Positions 739 to 52,086 of a stretch of 64,000 nucleotides of DNA are shown here, one piece after another (position 1 is the stretch's first letter; every line of letters begins with the position of its first letter). The translations under genes and the position numbers were made by a program. The notes beneath the pieces were generated by a model. It was not told the DNA's origin. It did no database searches and worked only from the letters and a program-made list of their open reading frames with translations. Source of the DNA: Mustelus asterias (Eukaryota); contig NC_135808.1 in the NCBI RefSeq assembly GCF_964213995.1, positions 33,542,001 to 33,606,000 on the forward strand. Reading direction: 5' to 3'.

Positions 739-790
739 ATGTTGCTGATCCTTTTCCCCATCTCCCTGTGTTTTTCCTGGGTCTCTCCCG
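739..790 (+). CDS. Non-classical MHC class I heavy chain, exon 1 (signal peptide MLLILFPISLCFSWVSP)
   Basis: ATG at 739, 17 hydrophobic codons plus 1 nt, then strong donor CCG|GTAAGT at 790/791. Phase 1 matches the alpha1 acceptor (G+AT = Asp). Too short for the ORF track. Confidence 0.85.
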
Positions 791-1114
791 GTAAGTATAG
801 AATTCACTCTTCCATTCTCACTCTCACCCTTTCTCTCTCTCGCACACACACACACACTCTCTTGCTGTAAATTCCTGAGGAGTTTACTGAAAGTGGGAGT
901 GTCAATACCTGTAGAGGATATGTGCCACAATATTACACTGATAGTGTCTCACTTACTGTGTGTGTTAACCCTTTTTTCTCTGCCTCTATTTCTGTGGCTG
1001 GGATGTGGCCCAGGTGCAATGGATGCGGTGAGCCATTCAAAAGTCCATTCACTTTGGTGGGATTGGAAGATCCTGCCAGTGGGAGGGACCAGGAGATTCT
1101 GACCATTGATTCCA

Positions 1115-1415
1115 TCTGCCTCTCTTTTCTCTCTCTCTTTGGGTTTGTTTTTGTGCCTGTCTTTCTAGTCTCTGTCTCATTTCTCTGTTTCTCTTTCTAT
1201 CCCTCTGTCTCTTTTTTCTCTCTCTAATCTATTCCAGTCTCTCTCTCACTCACTGCCTGTCTCTCTCTCCCTCTCTTCATGTCTCTTTCTTATTGTATTT
1301 GCCTTTGGTTCTGTCTCTCTCTGTTTCTGTTTTTTTTCCCTGTCTGTGTATGCCCCATGTCCCTTTTTGTTATGTTTTGCCTTCTCTCTCTGCCATTGAC
1401 TCTGTCTCTCTGCAC
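1115..1415. repeat. Degenerate (CT/GT)n simple repeat in intron 1
   Basis: Low-complexity TCTCTG/TCTCTC runs. Confidence 0.8.
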
Positions 1416-2018
1416 TTTTACTAGAATTGGAGTCAAACAACTATTTCTTTCAATCTTTGTTGTCCACAAGATTTAAAATGAGCTATTGGTTTCAGAGTCC
1501 CAGTTATACTTGATCTGAAAGAATTAAATGGAATGGATGGGCAGTTTGCAGAAACATTTTCTTTCCCATAAGGGAATTTTCTAGTGCCTACTTAGCTCTT
1601 GCCACTTTGAAGATTGACTGGCCCTAACCTTTCAATCTCCAGATGTTTGGAGATTGGACATAAGCTGGGCATGTGTCTGGATCCTGTGTATTTCCAGATG
1701 CACAGACATGCAATGTGTTAGCCTGGAAAGTTTAAGTTTAACCTTCTGAACGGCTAATTCTTTCTTCCCAGAGCCCCCTGCGAAGTCTCCAACGCTGAGC
1801 TCAGTATCAGAGTTTTGGGACTTACCCAGGAAATGTTGCATAGTTCAATACCTACTCTAACTCAGTGGTCAGTCTGTGGAACTCAACTAAGCCACACAAC
1901 CAACATCTCCAATCACTCCCTGATCACCCAACTTCAACCGACCACCGGCAGCTCCCCCACCACCCTGCCCCCCCCCCCCCCCCCCTCCTCCATCCCAAAC
2001 CCCAGACAATCACCCAAC

Positions 2019-2307
2019 TGGTTAGCACTGCTGCCTCACAGCGCCAGGGACCCGGGTTCGATTCCCAGCTTGGGTCACTGTCTGTGTGGAGTTTGCACAT
2101 TCTTCCTGTGTCTGCATGGGTTTCCTCCCGTGCTCCCACAGTCCAAAGATGTGCAGGTTAGGTGGATTGGCCATGCCAAATTGCCCCTTCATGTCAGGAG
2201 ACTAGCTAGGGTAAATGCATGGGGTTATGGGGATAGGGCCTAGGTGGGATTGTAGTCAGTGAAGATCGATGGGCTGAATGGCCTCTTTCTGCACTGTAGG
2301 ATTCTAC
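2019..2307 (+). mobile_element. HE1-type V-SINE
   Basis: TGGTTAGCACTGCTGCCTCACAGCGCCAGGGACCCGGGTTCGATTCCC head, V-domain body, CR1-like GATTCTA tail. Confidence 0.85.
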
Positions 2308-2432
2308 AATATTTCTGTCGTTGATATAATTTTGGGGATTACTGAAGATTGTTAATCTGTGAATGGGCTTCAGTTGGGTGTCAGTGTTTGTAAATGTCTA
2401 TTAACTTGCCTATCAAATTGTTTGTTTTACAG

Positions 2433-2693
2433 ATAGTAATGCCTTTACTGTAATGTATTTGGCCACCTCTGGCACTACTGATTTACCTGAGTACGTTGGT
2501 GTAGGAATGATCAATGGGGTTCCAGTTGCCTATTATGACAGTGGTACCCAACAAATAGTCTCCCGACAGCAGTGGATGACGGATTCTTTTGATGCGGAGT
2601 ACTGGGAATATCTCACAAATCGAGGGAATAAACATTGTGCCATTGCAAAGGAGAACCTGAAGATGATAATGAAAAATACAAACCAGACATCTG
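2433..2693 (+). CDS. MHC class I heavy chain, exon 2 (alpha1 domain)
   Basis: Acceptor TTTGTTTTACAG|, 261 nt, donor CTG|GTAAGA. Translates (D)SNAFTVMYLATSGTTDLPEYVGVGMINGVPVAYYDS...QWM...EYWE...NQTS(G). The YYDS, WM, EYW and N86 glycosylation (NQT) hallmarks of class I alpha1 are present. Confidence 0.93.
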
Positions 2694-2842
2694 GTAAGAA
2701 CAGTGATACACAGTCTCTCCTTTGCCCTTTTACCTCCTGTCTTCTCACCATCTAAGGCCTCAAAGAATCATTCCAGGTGATAATGTGATTTACATATTTT
2801 TACATTTATTATACTGTATTCACTGCTCACAATGTGGTCTCA

Positions 2843-3190
2843 TAGAATCATAGAAATCCTACAGTGCAGAAAGAGGCCATTGCGCCCATCGAGTCTGCAC
2901 CGACCACAATCCCACTCAGGCCCTACCCCCATATCCCTACATATTTTACCCGCTAATCCCTCTGAACTACGCATCTCAGGACACTAAGGGGCAATTTTTA
3001 GCATGGCCAATCGACCTAACCTGCACATCTTTGGACTGTGGGAGGAAACCAGAGCACCCGGAGGAAACCCACGCAGACACGAGGAGAATGTGCAAACTCC
3101 ACACAGACAGTGACCCAAGCCAGGAATCGAGTCCAGGTCCCTGGAGCTGTGAAGCAGCAGTGCTAACCACTGTGCTACCATGCCGCCCAT
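2843..3190 (-). mobile_element. HE1-type V-SINE, full length
   Basis: Reverse complement of the HE1 consensus with (CATAGAAT)n tail. Confidence 0.9.
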
Positions 3191-3529
3191 TGGAGATCCC
3201 AAGCACAGACTGGGTGGTCATTTTTCAGAACACCTCCGTTCTGTCAATAAGTATAACCCTGAGCCTCCTGTTACTTGTCATTTAATTCTCCACCTTGCTC
3301 CAACTTCGACCTTTCTTTCCTTGGCCTGCTGCAGTGTTCCAATGAAGCTCAACTGAAGCTCAAGGAAAAATACCTCATCTTTTCATTATGTGCTTTACAA
3401 CCTTCCAAATACATGTTGAGTCCAAATTCAGTCTTTTGCCCCTCAACCTTTCCCTCCATTTCATTTATTAACTTATCTCTCAAGATTTTCTTGCATTTAC
3501 CTCTTTTGACAACATAATTCTTCCCATTC

Positions 3530-4720
3530 AAGCCTCGTTAATGATAATAGTAGGAAAAATTCGGGAATTACTACTAAAGGAGGGAACAGAAGAACTTCGA
3601 GAAATGGGAAATACAACAATGAATAGTTAGCATGAATTTCCAATGGGACAACCTTGCGTGGCTAACATTGTTGATCGTTTCAGGGAGATTGTGGAGACAG
3701 AGAGTGGACAATGGTAATGCAGTAGAGATAATTTATCTGGATTTTCAAAAGACCTTTGACATAGTGCCTCATAATAGATTAATGAATAAAAGTCAGAGAA
3801 TGTGGAGTCGGGAATAAGTGGCAGAATGTATTGTTAACTGTCTTCAAGAAAGAAAGAAGAGAGCAGGAACAAATGTTGGTTAGTGGCAGAATGTATGGGG
3901 AGTTGGTGGCTCATTGTTGGACTATCCAGAAACCCAAGGTAATAAACTAGGGGCCGGCATTCGAATCCCACCATGGTAAATGATTAAATTTGAATTCAAT
4001 AAATCTGGAATTAAAAGTCTCCTGAGGAGCATACAAAGCATTATGTACCATCTGGTTCACGAATGTCCTTTGGGGAAGGAAATCTGCATGAATGAATTTT
4101 TACCAAGTGGTGTTCCACAATGATCAGGCTGCTATTCATAGTTTGCATTAAAGATTGGAAATTAGGATTAAAGCACAATTTTGAAAATTGCAGATGGCAC
4201 CAAATTATAGGGAGGTGAGATGGGGTATTCAATACATGCTGGAGGGCATCAATAAATAGGCAAATAATTGGCAAATGGAGTTCAGCACAGATAATGTGAG
4301 GTAGTGCATTTTGGTAGAATTAGGGAAGTAACATTTTACTTGGAAGGTGTCTAAATTGGGTGTAAAAAGAAAGGGATCACAGAGTACAAATATGTTTATC
4401 ATTAAGAGTTGTGCCACAGGATACTATAAAAAAGAAATCAAAGTTCTAGGCTATATTTCTACAGAGATCAAATTGAAAAGGAGGGAAGTCATGCTATACT
4501 TGTATCAAACCTTGATTCGACCACACTTATTGTGTGTAATTCTGGTTGCCATATTATAAAAAGGATATAGAGGCACTAGGGCATTGGAGACAGTGCAGAA
4601 AAGATTTGCAAAGATAAAGCCAGAAATCAGTGGGTTATACATATACCAGTAAAGGATTGACAGGCTGTACCACTCTTCTCTTGCAAAAAAGAAGGCTCAT
4701 GGGATGACCGAACAGAGATC
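3530..4720 (+). mobile_element. Old degraded CR1 LINE fragments
   Basis: VDNGNAVEIIYLDFQKTFDIVPH and LYQTLIRPHL RT motifs, with many stops. Confidence 0.75.
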
Positions 4721-5569
4721 TTTCATCGAATCCTTATAATGCAGAAGGAGGCCATTTGGTCCATCGAGTCTGCATCGACTCTCAGATAGAGTATCCTACC
4801 CAGGCCTTCTCCCCCTCCCTATCCTCGTAACCCTTTTCCCTGTACTGTTTCACATCTTTAAAAATGAAAGCTTTTGATAGAGTGGATACTGCGAAATTGG
4901 AGGCGATATTACCATCATGTTGCGCCTGTTTCCGGGCACGAAAGCTTGGTAAAAACGGACGAGAGGCGAGTAGGGCAATCCGTGGCCGCCTCAGCACCAG
5001 TTCCCCCTTTACCAAGGCCCAAAAATAGCCTTTCAGGAATCCACCAAAAATGGGCATGATGGCCATTCAAACCTATTTGCATGCATTCCAATCCACTTAA
5101 CGGGCTGCACACCCAACTTTATTGGCACGTCCCCCTTTACTACTGCGTTCGCCAATCCGGAATTGGCCTGAAACAGACATGCTCCATAAAAGTCCAATTT
5201 GGACGCTCCATCCATGAGGGTTAGTGAGGAGGTAAGTGCCTAGCATCTGACGGCTCCATGCGTCCTTTCGTGGCTCCATTATGTTTTTTGGGTCGGTGGC
5301 AACTCTGCGAGTGTGTGGGGTTCGGGGGAGGGTGGGGTGGCTGTTGCTCAGCAGGGTGTCCAATGTCTGATTTGCAGCATGGACCCGGGTACCTGGGTCT
5401 CAGCACTGACCTCGGGACTTGTGGATGCTGCTGGGTCCTAATGCAGTCAGCACTCTTCCAGCTGAAAGATTGCACAAAGTCCTTGCGAATTGCACAGCAA
5501 GGCACTTTAGGGTTGCCGCAAGTTGAGCTATCTTCTCTCCTTCTAGCTGATTTCATTTACGCTATAGTT

Positions 5570-6480
5570 AATAGTTTGGGTGAATAATGGTCCCCCAGTA
5601 TCTTAGTTACTTCTTAATACATTTTGCTACCTGGTTTCTCAAGCTGGACCAGACTTTGGAGTAAATTGAACGTTTTACCGCCAATGGTACTAAGAAAAGC
5701 AGGGACTACAATATCCTCTGGAATCTTATTTGCCAATATATAACACTGAAATCTTTCTACATAAGATCTCCAATTCTTAGATTTTTCCTTGAATGAGCTA
5801 TTGGCATCAAAATTTCCTGCCATTCTTACTGGGTTACCGGGATCTAGGCAGTAATGTTTTCCAGGAGCTTGTCTTGATAATAAACAGCCCAGTTTTACTT
5901 TTCAACAGCTAGCTCTAGATTTTAATGCAATTCCAGGAATATCTGTTTTTCACTCTACCTCCATGCTTTACTTAAACTATGCACTTTGCAAGCTCTGCGT
6001 CCTGACCTCCTCGGATTGCCCGTATTTTGCTTTTTGGTGGGGACCTTTCTTTATGCTCCACTACCTTACTGGTCCAATGTCAGATGCAATCACTTACCTG
6101 CTGCTAATTCTACTCCAATTATCAGAAACATCGAAAGGGGATCGACCCTTCAATGAGTAAGTGCAATTCTAATTTTTCATTTCTTCTTTTTGTTAGAAGA
6201 AAATTTTTAATCTGCTCCTCATCACCAGTTTTGTTTTTATCTTGTTGTATATCTTGCACTCGTGAGGATAAAAGAAAGTGGAGTGTGTGGGTTGGTTGCA
6301 GTCAACAAGGCAGGTATATTGAGGTTCACTGTATGGAGGCATGGTCTAGACTGACTCAAAGTCCGCAAAGCAGCCGTTAACATCACGAATTACACACATG
6401 GCTAGATTCTTAAAGTGACAGCACAACAACACAACATCTACCCAAATAAATAAGTTACATTCCCTTCTCCTCTTGATCAT
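5570..6480 (-). mobile_element. Gypsy LTR retrotransposon 5' remnant (LTR, PBS, gag N-terminus)
   Basis: ORF 5614-5823 (NWRSYVERFQCYILANKI...AFLSTIGGKTFNLLQSLV) is Gypsy gag-like. A PBS-like TGGTGATGAGG lies on the minus strand near 6216-6226. Confidence 0.65.
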
Positions 6481-7136
6481 CAAGACTGGGACATACAAGA
6501 CAGGTTCTGAAAAGCAACCTCTTTTCACAGAATGGAGTTATTCACTGAAAATAAATTCTTTAATTTAAAATTTAGAAGAGTATGAGGTGATCTGATTGAA
6601 ACATGTAAGTTTCCCTTCGGGGTCTTCACAGGGTGGATGTGGAGAGAATACTTCCTCTTGTCAAAGAATCTAGAACCAGAGGGTCACTGTTTAAACATAA
6701 TGGTCACCCATTTAAAATGGAAATGAGGTGAATTTTTTCTCTCATAGTGTTGTGAGTCTTTGGAACAGAGATGAATAGATTCTTGTTAAGCAAGGATGTG
6801 ATAAGGTTATCAAGGGGAGGTGGGATGCAGATGTGAGGTGGCAATCAGATCAGCCTTGATATTAAATGCTAGGTAGGCTCGAGGGACTGAATGGCCCATT
6901 CCAGCTCCTTGTTCATAAGCTTATAAACTTCCTTCAACACCACACATTTGCTCAGTTTTACATTAATGGATGTCATTGTGAATTAACCAATAAAAAAAGA
7001 AGAATCTATTACTACGAAATGGATCCTACTGAGAGACCTATTGCTGAAACACTGAGCCCACAGAGAGATCTTTTACAATGATACTGAGCCTGCAGGGGGA
7101 TCTAATACTGTAAGACTGAATCCACACTGAGATATG

Positions 7137-9015
7137 GGGCGGAATTCTCCCAAAATATTTGTAAGGGCACAATCTTAGTGGCTTGTCCCAGCCAGTGAGA
7201 TTGCATGAGAGGCCAAAAATCTGGTTTGCACCTGGATTTTGACCTCCGAGAATCATACAAGCACTGTTTTAACTGCAAAGCTGATTTAAATATGAATGAC
7301 ATGTTTTTCATGGGCTCACTTGAACTTACCCTCTCGCGATCAGCGCAGACCAGATTTGATGGCCTCACCGATGGGATCAGAAGCCATTGAAGCCCCCACA
7401 TGGTCCGGGGCTTGGTCAGACAGTGCCCATGGAGCAGTGTCAGCTTAGCAATGCCCACTGGCCACCCTAGTACTGCCCACCGGGCACCGTAACTGCACCA
7501 TGGCTGTGACGAGGGATGGGGCCTAAGTGGGGCACATGCTGGGGAAGCCGCAGAGGGGAGTCTTAATGGGGACCCATCAGGAGGGTCCCAATGCCAGCGA
7601 CCCATGTTGCCATGTGGGGGGGGGGGGGGTTACAATGTCACCGATAATGGAGGGGGAAAGTTTGTTGGGGGGGGGGGGATGAGGCGTGGTTTGGGGATTA
7701 CAAAGAGGTCTCCCAGTTCAGTGGGAGATCAGGGCGCCTGCGCAATGACGGCCCAATCAGTCTAGAGCCGGCAAGCTTAAGCTCCTCACGGCCACTGGTG
7801 AGAATCGCACTCCTGTCTAGAAAAGTGACAGTGACACAAGCTTGCATTTTCAAGCTCAGCCAAAGAACAGGTCTGATACTCACCTGTTTTCTCGCTCTTT
7901 TGGCACTTCGAATATTTTTCGTAAGATCGTGGCTTAAGTGTCATAATAATGCAGTGATCCACGTCGGTCTCTCAGGCGTGCTCCACATTACAATCCTCCC
8001 ACACTCAGGCACTTTTTTGGAGAACTGTAAGTTTCACACCGATACTGGGTACTGGGATGGCTCGGGCCATTGAAGCCCGGACAGTTTTTTTTATTCATTC
8101 ATGGGACATGGGCATCGCTGGCTAGGCCAGCATTTATAGCCCATCCCTTGAGAAGCAGGTGGTGAGCCGTTTTCTTAAATCGCTGCAGTCTATGTGCTGT
8201 GGGTTGACCCACGCGGCCAGGCGGTGCCCATCGGTGCCCTTCGCCGGAGGTGCCCTTGGTGGGTTGCACCTGGCACACGGCACAGTGGTTAGAATTGCTG
8301 CCTCCCAGTCTCAAGTAAACGGGTTCGATTCCCAGCTTGGGTCACTGTCTGTGCGGAGACTGCATGTTCTCCCTATGTCTGCGTGGGTTTCCTCTGGGTG
8401 CTCTGGTTTCCTCCCACAGTCCAAAAAGCATGCTGGTTAGGTGAATTGGCCATGCTAAATTCTCCCTCAGTGTATCCATTCAGGCTCTGAGTGTGGCGAC
8501 TAGGGGATTTTCATAGTAACTTCATTGCAGTGTTAATGTTAGCCTACTTGTGACACTAATAAACAAAATAAATAAATAAACGGCTGTCCGGTGGCCACTA
8601 CTGGGCACCGCCAGCGTTGCCAGGTGGGCTCCACCTGGTGGGCACTGCCCAATGGGCACCACCTGATCATGCCCCTGACTATCTGGGGGTTTCAGTGGCC
8701 TCCGAGCTCCCTGGTGTGACCGTCGCACCAGGTCTCTGCTAGTGGAGACCAGTAGTGATTGCTGCCATTATCACGCTGCACCCGAAGGCCAGTGAATTCC
8801 ATGCACTGGATGCACGGCAATGCGTGTTTAAATGCTACTTTAAAAATGTTAATCAGATTCGCACCTTTTCTGGGTGCAATCCAGTTCACACCATCAGGAA
8901 GGGGTCAGAGGACTCACAAACTGTTTGGTGCCAAGTGTGAAACGGATTTTTAGTCCCGCATGCTGGTCTCCAGTACCGCTGCGACCTACCAACAGCGTAG
9001 CGAGGTCAGAGAATC
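7137..9015. mobile_element. Cluster of PIF/Harbinger-like non-autonomous elements with a nested SINE (8277-8580)
   Basis: GGGGCGGAATTCTCCC terminus and GC-rich interior. Segment ~7950-9015 matches the element at 38707-39670. Confidence 0.6.
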
Positions 9016-9019
9016 TATA

Positions 9020-10222
9020 GTGTTCAAGACCCAACCATCTTCAGCTGCTTCATTAATGACCTTCCTTCCATAATAAGGTCAGAAATGGGAACATTCACTG
9101 ATGACTGCACAATGTTCAGCATCATTCGTGACTTCTCAGACACAGAAGCAGTTCATGTCCAAATGCAGCAAGATCTGGACAATATACAAGGTTGGGTTGA
9201 CAAATGGCAAGAAACACCAATGGGCATCACGATGGCACAGTGGTTAGCACTGCTGCCTCACCATGCCAGGGACCCAGGTTCAATTCCAGCCTTGGGTGAC
9301 TGTCTGTGTGGAGTTTGCACATTCTCCCTGTGTCTGTGTGGGTTTCTTCTGGGTGCTCCGGTTCCTCCCACAGTCTAAAGATGTGCAGGTTAGGTGAATT
9401 GGCCATGCTAAATTGCCCCTTAGTGTCCAAAGATATGTAGGTTAGGGGATTGGTGGGGTAAATATGTGGGGTTATCGGGATAGGGTGAGGGGGGTCTTGG
9501 ATAAAATACTGTGTTGGAGAGTCGATGCAGACTCAATGGGCCAAATGGCCTCCTCCTGTACTGTGTAAGGATTCTATGACAAGTGTCAGACAATGCCCAA
9601 CTTCAGCAAGAGAGGATCTAACCATTGACATTTTATGTTAATAATGCTGAATCCCCCACTATCCACATCCTGGGAGTTACTATTGACCAGAACTGGACTA
9701 GCACTATAAATACTGTCAATACTTCGGCAGCAAATAACTTACCCCCTTATTCCCCAAAGCCTGTCCACCATCTGCAGGAATGCAATGGAATACTCTCCAC
9801 TTGCCTGGATGAGTGCAACTTCAACACCATCCAGGAAAACGTTGCCCAATTGATTGCTACCTCTTCACAAACATTCAATTTCTTCACCACCAATGAACAG
9901 TGACAGCAGTGTGCACAATCTACAAGATGCACTGTAAGGACTCACCAAAGTTCCTGAGCCAACACATTCCAACCCACGACCACTACCATATAGAAGATCA
10001 AGAGCAGCAAACACCACCACCTGGAGGTTCCCCTCCAAATTTATCACCATCCTGGTATATTGCCATTTCTTAACTGTAGCTGGGTCAAAATCCTGGAATT
10101 CTCTCCCTAATGGGTGTACCGCAAGAACTGCAATGGTTCAAGAAGGCAGCTCACTGCCACCTTCTGATGAGCAATAAATGCTGGCCGAGCCAGTGACGCC
10201 CACATCCCATAAATAAATGAAT
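9020..10222 (+). mobile_element. CR1-group LINE 3' fragment interrupted by an HE1 SINE (9222-9578)
   Basis: FTDDCTMFS RT motif. Same family and 3' end as the element at 32550-35778. Confidence 0.8.
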
Positions 10223-10404
10223 AATATACTGAGCTGATAGAGAGATTTATTTCTCTAAGACTGAACCCAGAGTGAGATCTATTACTGTAATACAGGACCC
10301 ACACAGAGATTTATCTTAAGGGGCAATTTAGCATGGCCAATCCTCTGTGCTTCCGTGCCGCCCTATTAATAGCTGATCTTTGATTCTCTGCTGATCTTTG
10401 ACAG

Positions 10405-10680
10405 GAATTCATGTTTTCCAATGGATTCGGTCTGTTGAGGTCACTGAAGACGGCTCCATTAAGAGATCGATGCGGTTTGGATTTGATGGAAAGGACTATA
10501 TTAGTTTAGAGCCAGACAGAATGAGATGGGTCACATCCAATCACATGGCAGTGAAGACCATGGAGAAATGGAATTCGGACGAATCCTGGAACAAGTATTG
10601 GAAATGGCAGTTGGAAGTAGAATTGATTGAACGTTTAAAACTACGTTTACACTTTGGAAAGGAATGTCTTAAAAGGAAAG
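10405..10680 (+). CDS. MHC class I heavy chain, exon 3 (alpha2 domain)
   Basis: Acceptor CTTTGACAG|, 276 nt (typical alpha2 exon length), donor AAG|GTATTC. Translates (G)IHVFQW...FGFDGKDYISL...W...TMEKW...LE...L...GKE with H93, Q96, D119-G120-K-D122-Y123, W133, T143, K146, W147. Confidence 0.93.
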
Positions 10681-10795
10681 GTATTCATTTCACTTTTGAG
10701 CCCATGTTCTGCTCTAACTTCACTGATCTATCAAACTGTTCTCCCATTCCATTCAGTGGGTTTATTGTTTGTGTTTTCACTCTTTCCCATTACAG

Positions 10796-11074
10796 TTCAG
10801 CCTGAAGTCTTCATCTCCAGAAGTGAACCCAATAGTCAGTATAAGCCGCTCACTCTCTCCTGCCTGGTTACTGGCTTTTATCCTGTAGACATCGAGGTGA
10901 CCTGGCTAAGGAATGGAGAGGTAATGTCTGAGACACTATCCTCGGGGGTTCGACCGAACCACGATGGGACCCATCAGATCCAGAAAGAGATTGAAATAAA
11001 TGCTGGGGATGAGGATCAATACTCCTGTCAAATTGAACACAGCAGCCTGGCAGAGCCCAAGCTCCACCAGTGGG
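10796..11074 (+). CDS. MHC class I heavy chain, exon 4 (alpha3, Ig C1-set)
   Basis: 115-nt intron, acceptor TTTCCCATTACAG|, 279 nt, donor TGGG|GTAAGG. LSCLVTGFYPVDIEVTW, RPNHDGTHQ and YSCQIEHSSL are canonical C1-set/class I motifs. Confidence 0.95.
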
Positions 11075-11759
11075 GTAAGGAACTATATGTGTGCATATTG
11101 TGTGTATGTGTGAAAAAGATAAACAGCAAGTGGTGGCTGAATGAAATATAGATGGTGACAGGCAAGAGAAACTGGGACTGTGTCATGGAAATTGATTCAA
11201 AAAGAATGAACAAGAGAGAGCCATGGACATTTAAAATGAAACACATCATTGAGCATGCCATATACATTTTCAATTTTTGGCATTTTCCCATGTTTAATTT
11301 CAGGAATGTTTGAGCTGATTTTTATTGCTATGTCACTGTTCAAGTAAATTCAACAGACAGGCCTGGCTTGTCTTTGAAATTCACCTGAAACTGACAACAT
11401 AAGCAGAGGCTCTGAAATCTACTTTGGAGAACAAACTGCTCAGTTTTCAAACTAATAAAAGTGTCAATCAAGCAATACCATTCAGAGTGTCAAAGTCAAA
11501 AAACTTGCATTTACTTCACAACTTTTAATCTTATGTAACTTAACACAAGAGGGACGGCATGGTGGCACAGTGGTTAGCATTGCTGCCTCACAGCACCAAC
11601 AACCCAGGAACAATTCCGGCCTTGGGTGACTTTCTGTGTGTTTACACATTCTCTCAATGTCTGCGTGGATTTCCTCTGGGTGCTTCTGTTTCCTCGCACA
11701 ATCCAAAGATGTGCAGGTTAGATTGATTGGCCATGGTAAATGCGTGGAGTTACAATGAT

Positions 11760-12450
11760 AGAACAAAGAAAAGTACAGCACAGGAACAGGCCCTTCAGCC
11801 TTCCAAGCCTGTGCTGATCATGATGCCCTGGAAAAAAAAACCCTTGCTCGGTCTGTATCCCTCTATTTCGTCCCTATTCATGTGCCCATCCAGATGCATT
11901 TTAAAAGTTGCTAATATGCCTGTTTCCACTACATCCTCTGGCAGTGCATTCCAGGCACTCACCACTCTCTGCATGAAAAACTTCCCCTGCACATCTCCTT
12001 TAAACTTTCCCCCTCTCACCTTAAACCTGTGATCCCTTATAATTGACACTTCCAACCTTGGAAAGAGCATCTGACTATCCATTCTGTCTAGAGGTGGCTA
12101 AATATAGCACTTAGGGCAAACAGGATCAAGATTGTGGGGAGATTATGGGGAGAAAGCAGGATTAGGCTACTGAGTTGGACGATCAGCCATGATCATGATG
12201 AATGGCGGAGCAGGCTTGAAGGGCTGAATGGCCTCCACCTGCTCCTACCTTCTATGTTTCACCACCTCATATTTGTCCAGATTAAACTCCATCTGCCATT
12301 TCTGTGCCCAGGTCTCCAATCTATCTATATCCTGTTGTATCCCCTGACAATCCTCGGCACTGTCAGCACTCCGCCAATTTCCGTGCCATCTGCAAACTTA
12401 CTAATCAGACCACCCACATTTTCCTCCAGATAATTTATATATATATATAT

Positions 12451-12484
<34 letters not shown>

Positions 12485-14545
12485 CTACAAGCAACAGACG
12501 TCCCAGCACTGATCCCTGTGGAACACCACGAGCTACAGATCTCCATTTTGGAAAACACTCTTCCACTGCTATAACCAAGACAGTTCTGTATCCATCTAGC
12601 CAGCCCATCCCGAATCCCACATAATTTATTTTTTGTACCAGTTTGCCATGTGGGACCTTGTCAAACACCTTACCAAAATCTATATAAACTATATCCACGC
12701 CCTTCCCTCATCAATTTACTTTGCCACCTCTTCACAAAACTCAATCAAATTGATGAGACATGGCCTTTCCCGTACAAAACCATGCTGCCTGTCACCAACT
12801 GGTCCATTTTCCTCCAAATGTGCATATAACCTGTCCCTCAATATCTTGTCCAAAAGCTTCCCCGCCACTGATGTCAGGCTCACCGCCCTATAATTTGCTG
12901 GATTATCCCTGCTTCTTTTCTTAAACAAGGGAACAACCGTGACTATTCTCCAGTCCTTTGGCTCGCCTGTGGTCAAAGAGGATGTGAAGATAACTGTTAA
13001 GGCCCCAGACATTTCTCCCCTTGTGCCCGCAGTAACCTGGGGACTTGACTACCTTAATGCATTTTAGGATAGTCAGCAATTTCCACTTTGACATATTGAT
13101 GTTCTCAAGAAGGTTCACGCACCTATCCTTGACCTCAACATCCGCCATGTCCTTCTCCTTGGTGAATACCAATACAAAGTAATCATTAAGGATTTCACCC
13201 ATGAAAGTTAATCTTGTGTAACTTAACACGAGAGGGATGGCAGGGTGGCACAGTGGTTAGCATTGCTGCCTCACAACACTAACAACCCGGGAACAATTCT
13301 GGCCTTGTGTTACACATTCTCTCAATGTCTGAGTGGGTTTCCTCCGGGTACTTCTGTTTCCTCGCACAATCCAAAGATGTGCAGGTTAGGTTGATTGGCC
13401 ATGGTAAATGCGTGGAGTTACAGTGATAGAACAAAGAACAAAGAAAAGCACAGCTCAGGCGAGCCAGACGACTGGAGAATAGTCAATGTTGTTCCCTTGT
13501 TCCACACATAACTTCCCTCCATTGTCCTTGAGTGAAATTACTCTTTCTCTTGCTACCCTCTTGCTCCTAATATATGCATAAAAAATCTTGGGATTCTCCT
13601 TGACCCTGTTTGCTAAAGACATTTCATGGCTCCTTTTAGCCCTCCTAAATCCACGTTTAAGTTGCTTCCTACTTTCACTGTACTCCTCAAGGGCTTCGTC
13701 AGTTTTTAGATGCCTAGACCTATAGCATGCTTCCTTTTGATTAAGCTTACAATTTCCTTTGTCATCCATGGTTCCCAAATCCTGCCATTTCTATCCTTCA
13801 TTTTTGTGGGGACATACCTGTCCTGCACTTCAGCCAACTGGCCTTTAAAAGCCTCCCACATGTCAGACGTGGATTTGCCCTCAAATAGCCGCTCCCAATC
13901 CACATTCCCTAATTCCTGTCTAATTTGGATGTAACTGGCCCTCACCCAATTAAGCATCCTCACCCGAGGGCCATTCTTGTCCTTATCCATGACTACCCAA
14001 AATCTTATGGAATTATGGTCACTAAGCCCAAAATGCTCCCCCACTGAAATATCGATCACCTGGCCTGGCTCATTCCCCAAAACCAAGTCTAGTATGGCCC
14101 CTTCCCTGGTTGGATTGTCAACATACTGTATCAAAAAGCCCCCCTGAAGACATCTAACAAATTGCTCTCCATCCGAGCCCCTGGCTGCAAGGGATTCCTA
14201 GTCAACATGAGGGAAGTTAAAGTCACCCATCACAACTACTCTGCTTTTTTCACACCTTTTCAGTATCTGACTACAAACTGCTCCTCTGTCTCCTATGGGC
14301 TGTTGGGCGGCCTATGGTACACTCCCATCATTGTGATTCACCCTTCCTATTCCTGGGCTCTACTCATAATGCCTCACTGCAAGATCCTTCCAATGTCTCC
14401 TCCCTCAACACAGCTGTGATGCAGTAATGCTCAGAATCAGTAATGCAACTCCCCCACCCCTTCTGTCCCATCCCGGAATGTTAAGCTGCCAGTGCTGTCT
14501 CTCCTTTAACCATGTTTCCATAATTGCAATTACATCATAATTCCA
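11760..14545 (-). mobile_element. CR1 (HER1-type) LINE, degraded ORF2, with an internal (TA)n at 12436-12484
   Basis: APE (PTREGAILDLVL, SDHNSI) and RT ([24 protein letters not shown]) motifs in minus-strand ORFs. Confidence 0.9.
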
Positions 14546-15589
14546 AGACATCTGTTTTCCAAATGGTCTCATTCCGAATGCTTGATTAAGCTCCAAGAAT
14601 TGCTAATGTGCTTAGCTCAGCAGGGGTCTGTTGACTCAGCTTACAGTACAAATTTTGTTTGACTGACATCTTTATTCACTTTTAGTAAATTTTCATCATA
14701 ATTCCATGAAATAATCCAGACTCTCAGTTCATCTGTTTTACCTACATTGAATTCTTCTTGCATTGTAGCAAACGCACTCCAGACCTACAGTCCTGCTGAG
14801 CCCTGCGGCTTCCCTCTGCCTGCTCTTACTCTGCGCTATGTTCATCTCGGTCTCACTTTTTCCCCCATTCTCTACACTGGGCAGGGTAGTTGTGATGGGT
14901 GACTTTAACTTCCCCATAGGGTGGGGAGATGTGGGCCTGGGTAGGATGCTCTTTCGGGGAGTCGGTGCAGACTTGATGCATTGAATGGTTCCTTCTGCAC
15001 TGCAGGAATTCTATGGTTCTAAAGGCATTTAAAGACCGCATCATAGAAAAATTTACTAAAAGTGAATAAAGATGTCAGTCAAACAAAACTTGTACTGTAA
15101 GCTGAGTCAACAGACCCCTGCTGAGCTAAGCGCATTAGCAATTCTTGGAGCTTAATCAAGCATTCGGAATGAGACCATCTGGAAAACAAATGTCTTGTCA
15201 TCCCTTCTCTTTCTGCAGGTCACAACCTGAAACGTTAACTCTGTTTCCTTCCACAAATGCTGCTAGAGTTGCTGAGCATTTACAGCATTTTCTATTTCGA
15301 TTTCCAGCACCTTCAGTATTTTGTTTTGGGACTGGGAAGAACTTCATGTTCAAAATAATATCTTAAGTCCACTTGAGAGGACCGAGAGGCCTCATTTTAA
15401 TATCTAGTTAAAAGATGGCACTTCTGACAGCGCAGTCATCTCTCAACACTACTCTCTAAGTATTTCTCTCAGTGCTTGCCCTCCAACAATACACTGCCTT
15501 CTCAGTACTGCCTGTCCAACAGTCTAGTAATATAACTGTATGTCCATTCCAACAAGGGTTACAGCTTTGGCACTGCCCTTTTGAAACTG

Positions 15590-16825
15590 GAGCAGTCCCT
15601 CAGTACTGACCCTCTGACAGTGCAACACTACCTCAGTGCTGACCCTCTGACAGTGCAGCAGTCCCTCAGTACTGACCTTTTGAAACTGCAGCACTCCCTC
15701 AGTACTGACCCTCTGACAGTGCAGCACTCCCTCAGTACTGACCCTCTGACAGTGCAGCACTCCCTCAGTACTGACCCTCTGACAGTGCAGCACTCCCTCA
15801 GTACTGACCCTCTGACAGCGCAGCACTCCCTCAGTACTGACCCTCTGACAGTGCAGCACTCCTTCAGTACTGACCCTCTGACAGTGCGGCACTCCCTCAG
15901 CACTGACCCTCTGACAGCGCAGCACTCCTCAGTACTGACCCTCTGACAGTGCAGCACTCACTCAGTACTGACCCTCTGACAGTGCAGCACTCACTCAGTA
16001 CTGACCCTCTGACAGTGCAGCACTACCTCAGTACTGACCCTCTGACAGTGCAGCCCTCCCTCAGTACTGACCCCCTGACAGTGCAGCACTCACTCAGTAC
16101 TGACCCTCTGACAGTGCAGCACTCCCTCAGCACTGACCCTCTGACAGTGCAGCACTCACTCAGTACTGACCCTCTGACAGTGCAGCACTCCCTCAGTACT
16201 GACTCCATGACATGTAATGCTCCCTCAGTTATAATTGACTGGCAGTACAGCACTCCCTCACTACTGACCCCCTGACAGTGTAGTGCTCCCTTAGTACTGA
16301 CCCCTTGACTGTGTAGTGCTTCCTCAATTATAATCGTCCGGCAGTGCAACACTACCTCAGTACTGACCCCCTGACAGTGTATTGCTCCCTCAGTACTGAC
16401 CCCCTGACAGTGCAGTGCTCCCTCAGTACTGACCCTCTGACAGTGCAGCACTCCCTCAGTACTGACCCTCTGACAGTGCAGTGCTCCCTCAGCACTGACC
16501 CTCTGACAGTGCAGTGCTCCCTCAGCACTGACCCTCTGACAGTGCAGCACTCCCTCAGTACTGACACTCTGACAGTGCAGTGCTCCCTCAGCACTGACCC
16601 TCTGACAGTGCAGTGCTCCCTCAGTACTGACCCCCTGACAGTGCAGTGCTCCCTCAGTACTGACCCACTGACAGTGCAGTGCTCCCTCAGTACTGACCCT
16701 CTGACAGTGCAGCACTCCCTCAGCACTGACCCTCTGACAGTGCAGTGCTCCCTCAGTACTGACCCCCTGACAGTGCAGTGCTCCCTCAGCACTGACCCTC
16801 TGACAGTGCAGTGCTCCCTCAGTAC
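15590..16825. repeat. 33-bp minisatellite (CTGACAGTGCAGCACTCCCTCAGTACTGACCCT)n, about 37 units, in intron 4
   Basis: Directly visible tandem array. The unit is a multiple of 3, which generates the repetitive ORFs on both strands. Confidence 0.97.
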
Positions 16826-17154
16826 AGTAATGGAGTGACAGCCTAGGTTTTGTGCTCAAGTCTCAATTGTGCCTCAGATGTGCTCAACGTTACCTGTCCA
16901 TGATGTCTCTCAGCTCCTGCACTAACCCTATGTTGCCAGGCTGCTAATCCAAGGGTGGAGTTAACTTGCTGCTTGTGTGTAAAGTTTGCCATTATTTCGA
17001 TGGAAAATAGGCATTTGCTATCAGCTGACATGCGAGAAACATCAATTTCACTGATGCCTGGGAACAACAACAAAGACACAAACAGATTAAATTAGAACTG
17101 GGAATGGATCTGGGAACACAGAGTAAATCCTGACATTATTCCAATTTGTTTCAG

Positions 17155-17274
17155 AAATCCCAGGAAACAGTTCGGGACACTTGCATCCTGGATTTATAAC
17201 AGTATTAGTGTTCACTGCACTGGCTGTTATATTTGGGATAGTCAGAATAATTATCTGGAAAAGACATCGAAGAG
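17155..17274 (+). CDS. MHC class I heavy chain, exon 5 (connecting peptide + transmembrane + basic stop-transfer)
   Basis: Acceptor TTTGTTTCAG|, 120 nt, donor GAG|GTAAGA, phase 1. Translates (E)IPGNSSGHLHPGFITVLVFTALAVIFGIVRIIIWKRHRR. Confidence 0.88.
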
Positions 17275-20455: not shown

Positions 20456-21181
20456 TGGGTCTATATTCTCTGGAGTTTTGAAGAATGAGGGGCAATCTCA
20501 TTGAAACATGCAGGGGCTTGACAGGGTAGACACAGAGGTTGTTTCCCCTGGCTGGAAAATCTAGAATATAGACCGGGTCGGAGGGACATATTCTCAGAAT
20601 AAGGGGATGTTCATTTAGGACTGAGATGAGGAGAGAATCTTTGGAATCATCTTCCCCAGAGAGTTATAGATGTTCCACCATTGAATACATTGAAGGGTGG
20701 AATAGATAGAATTATAGCCCATAGGAAATCAAAGGGAGAGCAGCGGAAAAGTGGTGTTGAAACCCAAGATCAGCCATGATCATATTAATTATGGAGTAGG
20801 CTCGACAGACCACATTGTCAACTCCCTATTCCTATTTCTTAAACTCTTTTTACAGTTTACAGTTTACCATGGTCTTTTTTCCCAGGGTGTATCACAAGCA
20901 GGGTAAAAAATATAGTTCAGTCGAAGATTCTCCAGAATTATCACATCTCAGTGGGTAACATGCAGTTAAAAAGTGTTTGCAATTAGTGCTCTTTGCTCTT
21001 GTCCATAGTAACAGATAAAACAGGAAATCCACAGCAACCATTTCATAGGAATTCTGGAAAAGGACATTTAATCGGTGAGATTCCAAGTTTTATAAAAATT
21101 TTAAATTGTTGTCTTATTGATGTCCACATTTTCACTTTTTCCAAACATCGTGCAATTGACTGTGTTTAATATTTTCATTAG

Positions 21182-21366
21182 ATTCAGCACAGCCATTTCT
21201 GGAGACCAACCTCGCTCACCATCTCCCAGAAACTATGGTTCATAATGTGGATCTGGAGCTAAGTGACTCCCATCCTCAGCTTAAACTGCAACCTTTTCAG
21301 ACAGGATCACAACCCGGAGCACACAATCCAGTGGAAGGTAACACAACCACAACTGAACAGGAATAG
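21182..21366 (+). CDS. Candidate terminal cytoplasmic-tail exon of the MHC class I gene
   Basis: Acceptor ATTTTCATTAG| in non-repetitive sequence. The phase-1 frame is open for 61 codons (DSAQPFLETNLAHHLPETMVHNVDLELSD...TEQE*). There is no homology support and alternative acceptors exist. Confidence 0.4.
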
Positions 21367-21749
21367 AATTCAGTCCAAACAGACACTTCAAATTCTGCAA
21401 TGTTCCTGATGTAAATACAGTAAAATGTGATGTAGGTCACAACATGGCAGAGCGCTTAACAAACTGTGAGAAAGGAGAGACAACTCAGAGCTTACTGAGA
21501 CACTGTGATCCACATTGTAAAATGGAAAGAACCCATTGTTAGAGAAAACTAATCTGAGCCCAGGTGTCGGGAGGAACTGGCAGTAATTGCAAAGCAGATA
21601 GGAATTGAAATAGATGAGGATGTCAAGCTGTTTTCACAAGATCTGAAAATATTTACAATTCTATTAAAAGAGAAGCCATTCCCCAATTAAAAGAGAATTG
21701 GAACATTTGTCATTTGCCACAAATTGTGTAATTTGTTTGCCATTATTCA

Positions 21750-23670
21750 ATATAAGCCCACTGACTTACACAGCTACTTCAACCACAACTCCTCACACCC
21801 TGCTTCCTGTAAGGACTCCATCCCATTCTCCCAGTTTCTTTGTCTCTGCCATATAATGATGCTACACATCTGCCCTCACCTCTTCCCCTCCCTTTAGTGT
21901 TCCCTTCTACTCCACCAGCTTCTGTGTTCAAAAGATCATCCTCTGCCATTTCCAACATGGATTCACCCCCAAACATATTATACCTTCACTTCCCCTATCA
22001 GCATTCCATGGGGCCTATTCCCTCTGTGACACTCAGGTGCATTCCTCAATCACCCCAATACCTCTTCCTTCAGCATATTCCCATGCAATTGCAGGCAGTA
22101 TAACACCTGCCCCTTTAACTGCTCCCCACCATCCCCTACCATCCAAGGCCCCAAAGACTCCTTCCAGATGATCCACTTGCACTTTTTCAATTTTGTCTGT
22201 GGTCTCCTCTACTATGGAAAGACTAAAAGAAAATTGGGTGACCTCTTTATAGAACACGTTCACTCAGTCTGCATGCATGACCCCGACCTTCCTGTTGCTT
22301 GCCATTTCAAGTCACCATATTGTTCTCATGGCCACATTTCCATCCCTGACCTGCTACAAAGTTCTCGGGAAACTAACAGAAATTGGAGGAACAGTATTTT
22401 CAGTTAGGCATTTTACAGCCTTCCAGACTTTATATTAAGTTCAATAACCTTGAACTCTGTTCTCCATTTTGATTTTTTTTCACCCCTTACTGTGCTTCAG
22501 AGTACAGTCTGTAACTTGTTTTCATGTTTTTCTTTCAGGAAGTGCTAACCATTGTTATGCTGTTGTCATGTTCTGCTATCTGACCTTTATGCTGCAGTTA
22601 ACATCTGATTTAATCTTTAACACTGTCATTACCATTACTTTGTCTTGTATCCATGACATCTTTGTCATTTCATCTCCCTGGAGCTCCAACCTATCCCAGG
22701 CTCTCTATTTTGCTCCACGACAATAATGTCTCCTTCAATGTCAACAAAATGAAGGAGATAGTCATCGACTTCAGGAAGGGTAGTGGAAGGCATGCCCCTG
22801 TCTACATCAATGGGGACGAAGTAGAAATGGTTCAGAGCTTCAAGTTTTTAGGTGTCCAGATCACCAACAACCTGTCCTGGTCCCTCCATGTGGACGCTAT
22901 AGTTAAGAAAACCCACCAATGCCTCTACTTTCTCAGGAGACTAAGGAAGTTTGGCATATCCGCTACACCTCTAACCAACCTCTGTAGGGGCACCATAGAA
23001 AGCATTCTTTCCAGTTGTATCACAGCTTGGTATGGTTCCTGCTCTGTCCAAAACCACAAGAAACTACAAAGGGTCGTGAATGAAGCCCAGTCGATTATTC
23101 AAACCAACCTCCCATCCATTGACACTGTCTACACTTCCTGCTGCGTCGGAAAAGCAGCCAGCATAATCAAGGACCCCACGCACCCCAGACATACTCACTT
23201 GCACCTCCTTCTATCGGGAAAAAGATACGAAAGTCTGAGGACACGTACCAAACAACTCAAAAAAAGCTTCTTCCCTGCTGCCATCAGACTTTTGAATGGA
23301 CCTACCTCGTATTAAGTTGATCTTTCTCTGCACCCCAGCTATGACTGTAACACTACATTCTGCACTGCCTCCTTTCCTTCTCTATGAACGGTATGCTTTG
23401 TATAGCACACAAAAAACAATACTTTTCACTCTATACGAATACATGTGACAATAATAAATCAAATCTAATCAAATCAAATCTGTTTCATCCCCTCTCCGCA
23501 ACAGCATAAAACCATCACATTCCTACCTCCCTGCAGCTCTGACGAAGAGTTATATGGTCTCAAAATGCTTACCCTGTTTCTCTCCACAGATGCTGCCAGA
23601 CCTGTTGAGTTTTTCCAGCATTTCCTGTTGTGATTACAGATTTCTGGCATTCACAATATCTTGCTTTTAT
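21750..23670 (+). mobile_element. Penelope-like element remnant interrupted by Rex1
   Basis: YKPTDLHSY...SHP...KDSIPFSQFL RT tail and GIY-YIG-like LLYYGKTKRKLGDLFIEH...PVACHF. A degenerate hammerhead core starts at 23539. Confidence 0.75.
22718..23480 (+). mobile_element. Rex1/Babar-clade LINE 3' fragment
   Basis: NVNKMKEIVIDFRK, SFKFLGV, LYFLRRLRKF, IESIL...ITAWYG, SFFPAAIRLLN motifs and a (CAAAT)n tail. Confidence 0.9.
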
Positions 23671-39670: not shown

Positions 39671-40470
39671 TTGTGTTGTAATGCTGTCAGTTAATGACAG
39701 GGTGTGAAGATCTCTGTTCAAACATTAACGGTCTCAAACAGGATTGTAATAAATGATTGAACAATTAAATACTTATGTAACTTTAAATTAAAACAAAGAT
39801 TGAAAAAGAAAATAATTCAAATACGAAGTAGGTCAATCAGCATTTTAAATTGGGAAATACTTTGTCATATGTATAGGGAAAATTTCCAACTTCATTGGGG
39901 AGTTCCCATTGATAAATACTTGTTCAGGAGGCAGGGAGGGTCAAAATGGCAGAGCCCAATGGGCTCAAAACTGTAGTAGGAGGGTGAAGGAACTTCTCAG
40001 GTTCTGTCTTTGAAATTAGCTAGTTAATTGAACTCATTAATATTCACATTATATTTTTCCTCAATGTCTTTTCCAACCTTCTCCCAGGATAAGTTCCAAC
40101 TTGAAATGTTGTTTGCTGACTTTGCTGAGTATTCATCAGCAAACTCTCTGTTGCACTTGTAGTAAACCCATTTCCAAAAAGGTGTTTCAATGCTGGTATC
40201 AGCAGGAATATTCCAGTTACTGAATTGGTCATTGTGATCTCTGCTATGCTCATAACAAAATGATTCCCAGTTGGTGTCTTTAATCCCGGAAGGAACGTCA
40301 CCTCCAACATACACTGTACAATTCTTTGACGTGGCGAATTTTGGAGCAAAGTGCCGTCCATATTTGTTCAGCCTTCTGATCCGGTGATACTCAGCACTGT
40401 GCTGTGAGTACTCCTTGTTTTTACAATCACATAGGACACTACAGAAGGGATACTGCTTCCCATAGCCACC

Positions 40471-42683
40471 TTGATTTGATTTATTATTGTCACATGTATA
40501 CAGTGAAAAGTATGGTTTCTTGCGTGCTACACAGACAAAGCATACCGCTCATAGAGAAGGAAAGGAAAGAGTGCAGAATATAGTGTTACAGTCATTGCTA
40601 GGGTGTAGAGAAGGATCAACTTAATGCAAGGTAGGTCCATTCAAAAGTCTGATGGCAGCAGGGAAGAAGCTGTTCTTGAGCCAATTGGTACGTGATCTCA
40701 GACTTTTGTATCTTTTTCCTGACAGAAGAAGGTGGAAGAGAGATTATCCGGGGTGCGTGGGGTCCTTAGTTATGCTGGCTGCTTTGCTGAGGCCGCAGGA
40801 AGTGTAGGCAGAGTCAATGGATGCGAGGCTGGTTTGCGTGATGGACTTGGCTTCATTCACGACCCTTTAAATTTTCTTGTGATCTTGGGCAGAGCAGGAG
40901 CCATACCAAGCTGTGAAAGAATGCATTCTATGGTGCATCTGTAAAAGTTGGTGAGAGTTGTAGCTGACATGCCAAATTTTCTTAGTCTTCTGAGAAAGTA
41001 GGGGCATTGGTGGGCTTTCTTAACTATCATGTCAGCATGGAGGGACCAGGACAGGTTGTTGGTGGTCTGGACACCTAAAAACTTGAAGCTTTCGAGCATT
41101 TCTACTTCGTCCCCATTGATGTAGACAGGGGCATGTTCTCCACTATGTTTCCTGAAGTTGATGACTATTTTCTTCGTTTTGTTGACATTGAGGGAGAGAT
41201 TATTGTCGTTGCACGAGTTCACCAGATTCTCTATCTCATTCCTGCACTCTGTCTCATTGTTTGAGATCCGACTCACTATGATGGTGTCATCAGCAAACTT
41301 GAAATTCGAGTTGGAGGGGAATTTGGCCACACAGTCATAGGTGTATAGAGAGTATAGTAGGGGGCTGAGGTCCCACAGCCTTGTGGGGCACCGGTGTTGA
41401 GGACTATCATGGAGATCCAGTATCCTTACTGATTGCGGACTGTGGGTTAGGATGTTCAGGATCCAGTCACAGAGGGAGGGGCTGAGCCCCAGGCCACTGA
41501 GTTTGAAGATGAGTTTCATAGGAATAATGGTTGTTGAAAGCTAAGCTGTAGTCAATAAATAGGAGTCTGACATAGGTTTCTTTGTTATCTAGGTGTTCCA
41601 GGGTTGAGTGCAGAGCCAGGGAGATGCTGTCTGCTGTGGACCTGTTGCGGCGGTAGGCAAACTAGTGGATCCAGGCAATCTGGGAGGCTGGAATTGATTC
41701 GTGCCATGACTAACCTTTCAAAGCACTTCATAATGATGTATGTCAGAGCCACCGGCCAATAGTCATTAAAGCACGCTGCTTGGCTTTTCTTAGGTACCAG
41801 AATGATGGTTGTCTTCTTCAAGCAGGTAGGGACCTCCCATTGTTGTAAAAAGAGGTTGAAGATGTCGGCAAATACAACCGCCAGCTGATCCGTGCAGGAT
41901 CTGAGTGCTCGTCCAGGTACCCCATCCAGGCCAGTTGTGGGTTGACCTTTGAGAAGGCTGCTCTGACATCTGCAGGGTGACCTCAGATACAGGTTCATCC
42001 AGGGCTTCCAGGGTGGAGGGCATGCTCTCGCTGACCTCTTGCTCAAAACGAACATTGAATGCATTGAGCTCATCAGGGAGGGATGAGTTGAAGCGATTTT
42101 ATATGCCTTCATCTTGTAGTTTGTTATGTCTTGCAGATCTTGCCATAGTTGGCAGGGGTCCATGTGGCTAGCCTGGGACTCTAGCTTGGTCCTTTTGGCA
42201 TCTTTGATGGATCTCCTTAGATCATATCTAGTTTTCTTGTATAGGTCAGGGTCGCCTGACTTGAACATCTCAGACCTAGACTTCAACAAGCAGTGGATAT
42301 CCCTGTTCATTCATGGTTTCCGGTTGGGGAAAACACGGATTTGCTTCTTTGGCATGGTTTTCTGCATACTTACTAATGAAGTCAGTTACTGTAGTGGCAT
42401 ACTCGTTCAGGTAATTTACAGAGTTTTTAAATATTGACCAGTTCACTGACTCTAAGCAGTCTCATAGGAGATCATCCAATCCCTCAGACAAACATTGCAC
42501 GACTTTCTTTGACAGATTCTCCCATTTCATGTTTTGCTTGTAAGCCGGGAGCAGGAGCACAGCCTTGTGGTCTGATTTGCCAAAGTGTGGGTGGGCGATA
42601 GAGCGGTCGGCATATCTGATATTTATGTAGCAATGGTCTAGGATCTTTGGGCCTCTGGTGGAACAGGAGACGTGTTGGTGGTA
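40471..42683 (-). mobile_element. Rex1/Babar-clade LINE inserted into the GVIN pseudogene
   Basis: GKSDHKAVLLLPAYKQ, NDYWPVALT, KFADDT and LNVNKTK motifs; (CAAAT)n tail at about 40471-40480. Confidence 0.9.
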
Positions 42684-51960: not shown

Positions 51961-52086
51961 CTAAATGATTAATACTGGACTAAGTAGAATATTGTGCTCA
52001 CACTGTGATGTAAGAAGACACATAACCTAGATCTAGGTTCAGTTTAGAGATGGGTAGCAATGTGAGCAGACCTAGTATGGGTCCCC

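Follow-up and report, generated by a model that had tools for sequence, protein, structure and literature searches.

Can an MHC class I heavy chain dispense with the disulfide bond of its alpha2 domain and remain a working gene, and, if so, to which lineage would it belong and what would its groove hold? The question is raised by a gene in 64,000 nucleotides of Mustelus asterias DNA (contig NC_135808.1, positions 33,542,001 to 33,606,000), a whole stretch that we call the window. The original prediction, made from the letters alone, described an intact non-classical class I gene without the C101-C164 bond (residue positions are those of HLA). We favour, with somewhat better than even confidence in the account as a whole, an intact non-classical shark class I gene lacking this disulfide, very likely of the UEA lineage, whose conserved groove likely binds one fixed ligand other than an N-anchored peptide. 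The gene lies on the forward strand. Its first five exons, namely the signal peptide (window positions 739..790), the open alpha1 (2433..2693) and alpha2 (10405..10680) exons, an alpha3 C1-set domain with its own cysteine pair (10796..11074), and the connecting peptide with the transmembrane helix (17155..17274), all show AG/GT ends and phase-1 junctions, as had been predicted, and together read as an open frame of 329 amino acids. Past the end point of that prediction there are two more cytoplasmic exons, exon 6 at 21009..21074 and exon 7 at 21182..21366, which closes with the stop codon TAG (21364-21366). The seven-exon reading is identical, letter for letter, to database protein P0003 (412 amino acids, labelled Mustelus asterias). 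Pfam recognizes MHC_I (PF00129) and C1-set domains in the product, and the class I heavy-chain layout is complete: leader, alpha1, alpha2, alpha3, transmembrane segment and tail exons.

An ungapped alignment to the solved class I chain 7CPO_A placed Val (codon GTT, 10434-10436) on position 101 and Leu (codon TTG, 10623-10625) on position 164, exactly the replacements first proposed. The premise that the bond is nearly invariant in class I also held, as both cysteines are present in 158 of 166 alpha2 domains from outside the family of this gene, one is absent in 8 and both in none; this background was counted from 193 domain rows, setting aside 21 non-family rows gapped at one site or more and 6 family rows. 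Family members were collected by two word-index searches, which can miss distant members, and the 77 and 83 proteins returned (87 distinct, from 13 species) were all shark-named. Among these rows, which include isoforms and paralogues and are not independent, Val occupies position 101 in 76 of the 83 that align there and Cys never does, while position 164, over 82 aligned rows, is a mixture of Leu (30), Phe (23), Cys (7), Tyr (7), Ser (7), Gly (4) and four residues found once each. Since Cys101 is never present in the family while 164 varies, Cys101 was most likely lost first, before the split of the sampled shark orders, and 164 drifted later; the idea of a paired replacement by two aliphatic residues in this gene must be given up. 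In the M. asterias genome itself, Val or Ile occupies position 101 in 17/17 full family alpha2 exons, with a silently variable Val101 codon among paralogues (GTT, GTC or GTG), and among the 17 other class I exons that were examined 16 have both cysteines, the remaining one belonging to a broken copy.

Two further residues disappeared with the bond. Gly100 is kept in 0/81 aligned family rows and Trp167 in 0/83. According to the accessible part of a published structural account, Gly100 lifts the C101-C164 bond, leaving Trp167 turned up across the groove end, which it blocks, and the N-terminus of a peptide is held by Tyr7, Tyr59, Glu63, Tyr159 and Tyr171 (PMC8236899). Because Gly100 and Trp167 are also gone family-wide, the bond was likely lost along with the N-terminal peptide pocket. 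In the window gene, the alpha1 domain shows Y7>V, E63>L and R/Y84>N and retains Y59 and the N86 glycan site; the alpha2 domain shows G100>S, C101>V, Y159>Q, C164>L, W167>R and Y171>R and retains T143, K146 and W147. From the pocket set Y7, Y59, E63, Y159, W167 and Y171, Y59 is thus the sole survivor, and the gene has neither the bond nor the N-terminal pocket that characterize classical class Ia (UAA). We envisage that the pocket was given up in an early shark and that Cys101 became Val, which would then have been held as a core residue while 164 drifted. In place of the bond, Met114, Trp133, Trp147, Trp152 and Trp156, each present in 62 or 63 of 63 rows, likely pack the alpha2 helix. A substitute disulfide was considered and rejected: the spare cysteines are at positions 71 and 178, which lie far apart in known class I structures, and C178 is absent from the orthologues. 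The unpaired Cys at position 71 (in the exon at 2433-2693) is kept in 9/9 aligned orthologue rows and may serve in dimer formation or in binding the ligand.

Is this loss new? It is not, as it is an old, family-wide trait that is visible in published sequences. In Supplemental File 10 of PMC10751288, as far as its accessible part goes, both cysteines are kept by 23 of the 26 alpha2 queries, among them every UAA, UBA, UDA, UFA and UGA row, and the three without them are a nurse-shark UCA, the spiny dogfish UCA AF515705 and a ray 'UHA'. The novelty that had been held possible for the gene is therefore withdrawn, family sequences without both cysteines having already appeared in that file. A literature search, with most subscription journals outside its reach, did not find cysteine loss in sharks or the orthologue group of this gene discussed, and no solved structure close to the family was found. 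Even so, the family is a natural case for testing how a class I platform manages to fold when its alpha2 bond is missing.

To which lineage, then, does the family belong? The accessible part of PMC10751288 describes a shark class Ib cluster, made of single-copy UDA and multicopy UEA, between brd2/beta2m and hsd17b8/rxrb. In the M. asterias genome (sequence C8, whose coordinates are used from here on when given in Mb), a large class I cluster that keeps its cysteines occupies 21.6-24.7 Mb and is followed by an RXR-type exon (26.06). UDA comes next (32.277), then 14 full family exons (32.31-32.80 Mb), the window gene (33.55), beta2m (33.795) and, in the BRD2 position, a BET-domain exon (33.87); the order was read from these loci, a set of markers without hsd17b8, slc39a7 and col11a2. 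With 17 full alpha2 exons and one partial in the genome, the family is multicopy, and no other such family was found next to UDA where UEA is described to lie. The UDA orthologues found in white shark and catshark are LOC121291255 and LOC119975565, both of which are marked MHC-Ib in the described cluster. In a quick tree the family forms one clade (SH-aLRT 100) apart from UDA and the UAA/UBA-like rows, and the window gene is separate from the UDA, UBA-like and UGA-like rows of a tree that holds no UFA row; all trees were quick ones, the first leaving out 10 of the 77 proteins, with less than 90% cover. The alpha2 identity of the window gene to the other class I loci examined is 28-42%. From the gene order, the UDA neighbours and the single clade we read the family as UEA, an assignment in which we have high confidence although it was made by location, copy number and family tree, with no labelled UEA sequence in the comparison. 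The early guess of a UCA/UEA-type lineage is in this respect borne out.

Two facts weigh against this assignment, the one just given and the labelling in the published query file, which calls a nurse-shark relative UCA and has no 'UEA'. The first could speak for an unnamed Cys-less shark lineage distinct from both UEA and UCA. We regard such a lineage as very improbable, as the family is the only multicopy one beside UDA in the UEA region, and one of its members is already in the query file, going by the accessible part of PMC10751288. UEA is reported to be present in sharks and absent from rays and chimaeras, to have lost conserved peptide-anchoring residues, to have the most hydrophobic groove of shark class I and to fall into three sublineages. 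Of nine conserved peptide-anchor positions, four (7, 84, 159 and 171) are replaced in the window gene and five (59, 123, 143, 146 and 147) kept. The orthologue group of the window gene may equal one of the UEA sublineages already published.

Several observations on the neighbourhood can be added here. The leader peptide (739-790) is nearly identical to the UDA leader (P0119, P0124 and P0126) despite an alpha2 identity of 28%, so the first exon was possibly shared or converted between the UEA-type family and UDA. Two members of the family map well away from the described cluster, at 3662451 (3.66 Mb, L014) and 40145374 (40.1 Mb, L005). The block at 21.6-24.7 Mb contains more than 50 class I alpha2 matches in repeated units that look UBA-like by eye; the copies examined have both cysteines. 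By interpolation from accession spacing only, the catshark orthologue, P0008, would be LOC119975713, an MHC-Ib gene that stands alone at a distance of about 240 kb from B2M; white shark gave no clear answer.

Within this family the window gene stands out by its conservation, and the resulting orthologue group, absent from the original prediction, is the part worth following. One-to-one orthologues were found in nine other sharks, of four orders, with 86-97% identity in alpha1 and 79-90% in alpha2. Over the same species UDA reaches 64-76% in alpha1 (6 species, a partial basking shark record having been dropped) and 68-79% in alpha2 (7 species), and eight other family proteins of M. asterias have best alpha1 identities of 41-86% across four species. 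Only one such alpha1 exists in the genome, the next closest being at 74%. Across the 10 orthologues, 40 of 47 groove positions are invariant vs 77 of 132 elsewhere (Fisher p = 0.001), and at many of these groove sites there is wide variation among 53 paralogues. The MR1 groove is conserved across species. A groove more conserved between species than the rest of the protein is a pattern of the MR1/Z kind, and the window gene matches it. H93, Q96, D119, G120 and D122, the beta2m contact residues, are all present in the gene together with the alpha3 motif RPxxDGTxQ, as had been noted from the start, and N86 is present too; the contact residues are kept in 10/10 orthologues and 51-53 of 53 paralogues. 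These kept residues make pairing with beta2m likely, as predicted. The heavy chain would then still pair with beta2m and reach a membrane. Some caution is needed. The groove positions are those of HLA-A2, and buried positions are conserved regardless; support for the orthologue clade is modest in the quick trees (SH-aLRT 84 and 93); and whale shark, sevengill and sawshark yielded no orthologue, their best alpha1 identities being 64, 71 and 59%.

Conservation of this order already argues for function, as the prediction had proposed, and so do substitution rates. In comparisons with paralogues of the same genome, dN/dS is 0.22-0.42 in alpha1 (11 pairs) and 0.23-0.78 in alpha2 (16 pairs), below 1 in all 27 pairs. 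The alpha3 exons are homogenized, with 92-98% DNA identity to the 14 paralogue exons found (dS 0.03-0.17). This homogenization of the window exon with those of loci L002 to L017, while alpha1 dS reaches 1.2-1.9, is an instance of domain-wise concerted evolution. In four runs of four studies, taken by guess to be RNA, the sequence contigs cover exons only; the comparison took in 781 bases around exons 3 and 4 and relatives at 85% likeness or more. The contig of one relative joins 10678 to 10794 over a 115-base GT-AG gap, which is the predicted alpha2-alpha3 intron, and in 4/4 runs contigs have loose ends at 11074 that look like the beginning of the transmembrane exon. Finally, AlphaFold2 (61 sequences) models the alpha1-alpha2 platform with pLDDT of 86-95 per block.

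Not everything points the same way. The spliced contigs belong to relatives, none was shown to be the window gene, and the runs are RNA by guess only. One of the 14 alpha3 pairs has dN/dS above 1 (1.59, at a very small dS), and alpha3 is poorly modelled (pLDDT 49-76, pTM 0.51). The distal tail is cut by the stop at 21364-21366 and by a frame shift near 21399, leaving 21367..21515 as the untranslated remnant of a longer tail that is still coded in the catshark and horn shark orthologues. Could the gene be a copy that is untranscribed or has lately begun to die, with decay yet to reach its ectodomain? The tail lesions would fit, as would the stops in 3 of 17 family alpha2 exons of the same genome and a neighbour at 33.616 Mb that has lost exons 3-5. 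Nevertheless, we find this hard to credit: every splice site is intact, the terminal branch of the window gene is short (0.026), and the orthologues of white, basking, bamboo, epaulette and zebra sharks end at or before the same tail point. Because those five end as early or earlier, the distal part of the tail looks dispensable.

Two paralogues of the region deserve a description of their own. P0004, 1.1 Mb away (32458534-32458806, L002, and 32465736-32465990, L040), is 93% identical to the window gene in alpha2 (dS 0.08) and only 51% in alpha1 (dS 1.17); its alpha2 exon is likely a recent transfer from the conserved window gene, judging from these distances. The neighbour at 33611.8-33624.4 kb (L061 and L062) has tail exons, a leader and an alpha1 that is open (74%, dN/dS 0.22), and no alpha2, alpha3 or transmembrane exon was found for it in 33.606-33.876 Mb, where the assembly has no gap.

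What, then, would the groove of an intact gene hold? The near-invariant residues Y9, R66, H70, W97, R99, K146, W152, W156, R167 and R171 give it an aromatic and basic character. On the Kyte-Doolittle scale, applied to our own list of positions, the groove mean is -0.26, as compared with 0.07 to 0.41 for five paralogues, -0.49 for UDA and -0.26 to 0.53 for three distant class I molecules. The groove is aromatic and basic and less hydrophobic than in the five paralogues, so an anionic or aromatic ligand is favoured over a long lipid, and its being barely altered across four shark orders points to one ligand. In our proposal, a single conserved ligand, probably anionic or aromatic, would be displayed by the product to receptors of innate-like T or NK type. 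Against this stand three points: the groove is no more hydrophobic than a classical-like one; the kept T143, K146 and W147 mean that a peptide C-terminus could still dock; and a fold search returned classical class I and MR1 at near-equal scores and is silent on the ligand.

The second of these points leads to a different view of the same family, in which the gene presents one or a few invariant peptides anchored at the C-terminus only, the N-end being open or blocked by R167 and R171. T143, K146, W147, N77 and Y59 are invariant in 10/10 orthologues, and in the accessible part of PMC4364491 the fish Z lineage joins an invariant groove with presumed peptide binding. Still, none of Y7, E63, Y159, W167, Y171 and R/Y84 is retained, the groove would be crowded by W152 and W156, and we judge a C-anchored peptide to be unlikely. 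A second view dispenses with the ligand altogether: the groove would be closed and a conserved surface would dock a receptor or partner, as in MIC, HFE or FcRn. The outer face of alpha1 is conserved as well (86-97%), the gene lies apart from the main cluster, 250 kb from beta2m, and a Gly100-dependent shift in helix position separates classical class I from MIC-A, in the accessible part of PMC8236899. We hold this to be rather improbable, since the positions that face the groove exceed the rest in conservation, and some of them carry charges that would need a partner. With a single non-N-anchored ligand as the preferred reading, the window gene is the best target of the family, both for the test of folding without the bond and for a ligand search. 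If one ligand it is, innate-like antigen presentation in sharks becomes directly testable.

On the reverse strand of the window, 40024-40548 holds an open frame of 174 codons with no Pfam or Atlas match; we take it to resemble the C-terminal end of a very large inducible GTPase (GVIN/URGCP-type), possibly a remnant. An intron-4 tandem repeat and several LINE reverse-transcriptase-like frames were recognized by eye at 15524-16862, 22614-23315, 40857-42310, 52076-53434 and 60555-61583.

How does the gene compare with systems already described? Shark UEA (Almeida et al. 2021, J Immunol 207:824), in the accessible parts of PMC10751288 and PMC12562908, is multicopy, MHC-linked and adjoins single-copy UDA between brd2/beta2m and rxrb; the family agrees with it in all of this, and here it was seen only in sharks and has lost the N-terminal peptide anchors. 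Among the UEA-family paralogues, the window copy stands apart: it is conserved as a one-to-one orthologue, its tail is longer, and its groove is more basic and less hydrophobic than those of five of them. One published relative is the nurse-shark 'Gcirratum_UCA_NODE_26056', which, in the part of the query file at hand, has the same V101/L164 pair and, by eye, 66/92 identical residues in alpha2 and 81/93 in alpha3. Its alpha1, again by eye, is nearer to paralogue P0016 than to the window gene, and it is therefore taken as a member of a sister subgroup and not as the orthologue. The spiny dogfish UCA AF515705, from the same source, likewise has neither cysteine (V101, V164) and has W152 and W156 in common with the window gene, but with some 32 of 92 alpha2 residues identical by eye (about 35%) it would represent a related but separate branch. 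The ray 'UHA' query in Supplemental File 10 of PMC10751288, in the part available, is without both alpha2 cysteines and otherwise unlike the family. Shark UAA, UBA, UDA, UFA and UGA have the same domain layout, chromosome region and beta2m contact residues, and differ in that all their published queries, within that available part, keep C101 and C164.

A wider comparison is with teleost Z1 (PMC4364491) and MR1, whose role as a non-classical class I molecule is covered in the accessible part of PMC12562908. These too are non-classical and have a groove conserved across species, and the analogy is one of evolutionary pattern only. In the Z lineage, going by the portion of PMC4364491 at hand, most peptide anchors are kept, and the Z query retains C101-C164, so no orthology is implied. 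We tentatively suggest, as a possibility that we rate below even, that a frozen, disulfide-free groove beside beta2m, in an otherwise fast-evolving UEA family, is the shark counterpart of MR1 and Z, with a single anionic ligand, and that it has so far not been singled out in print.

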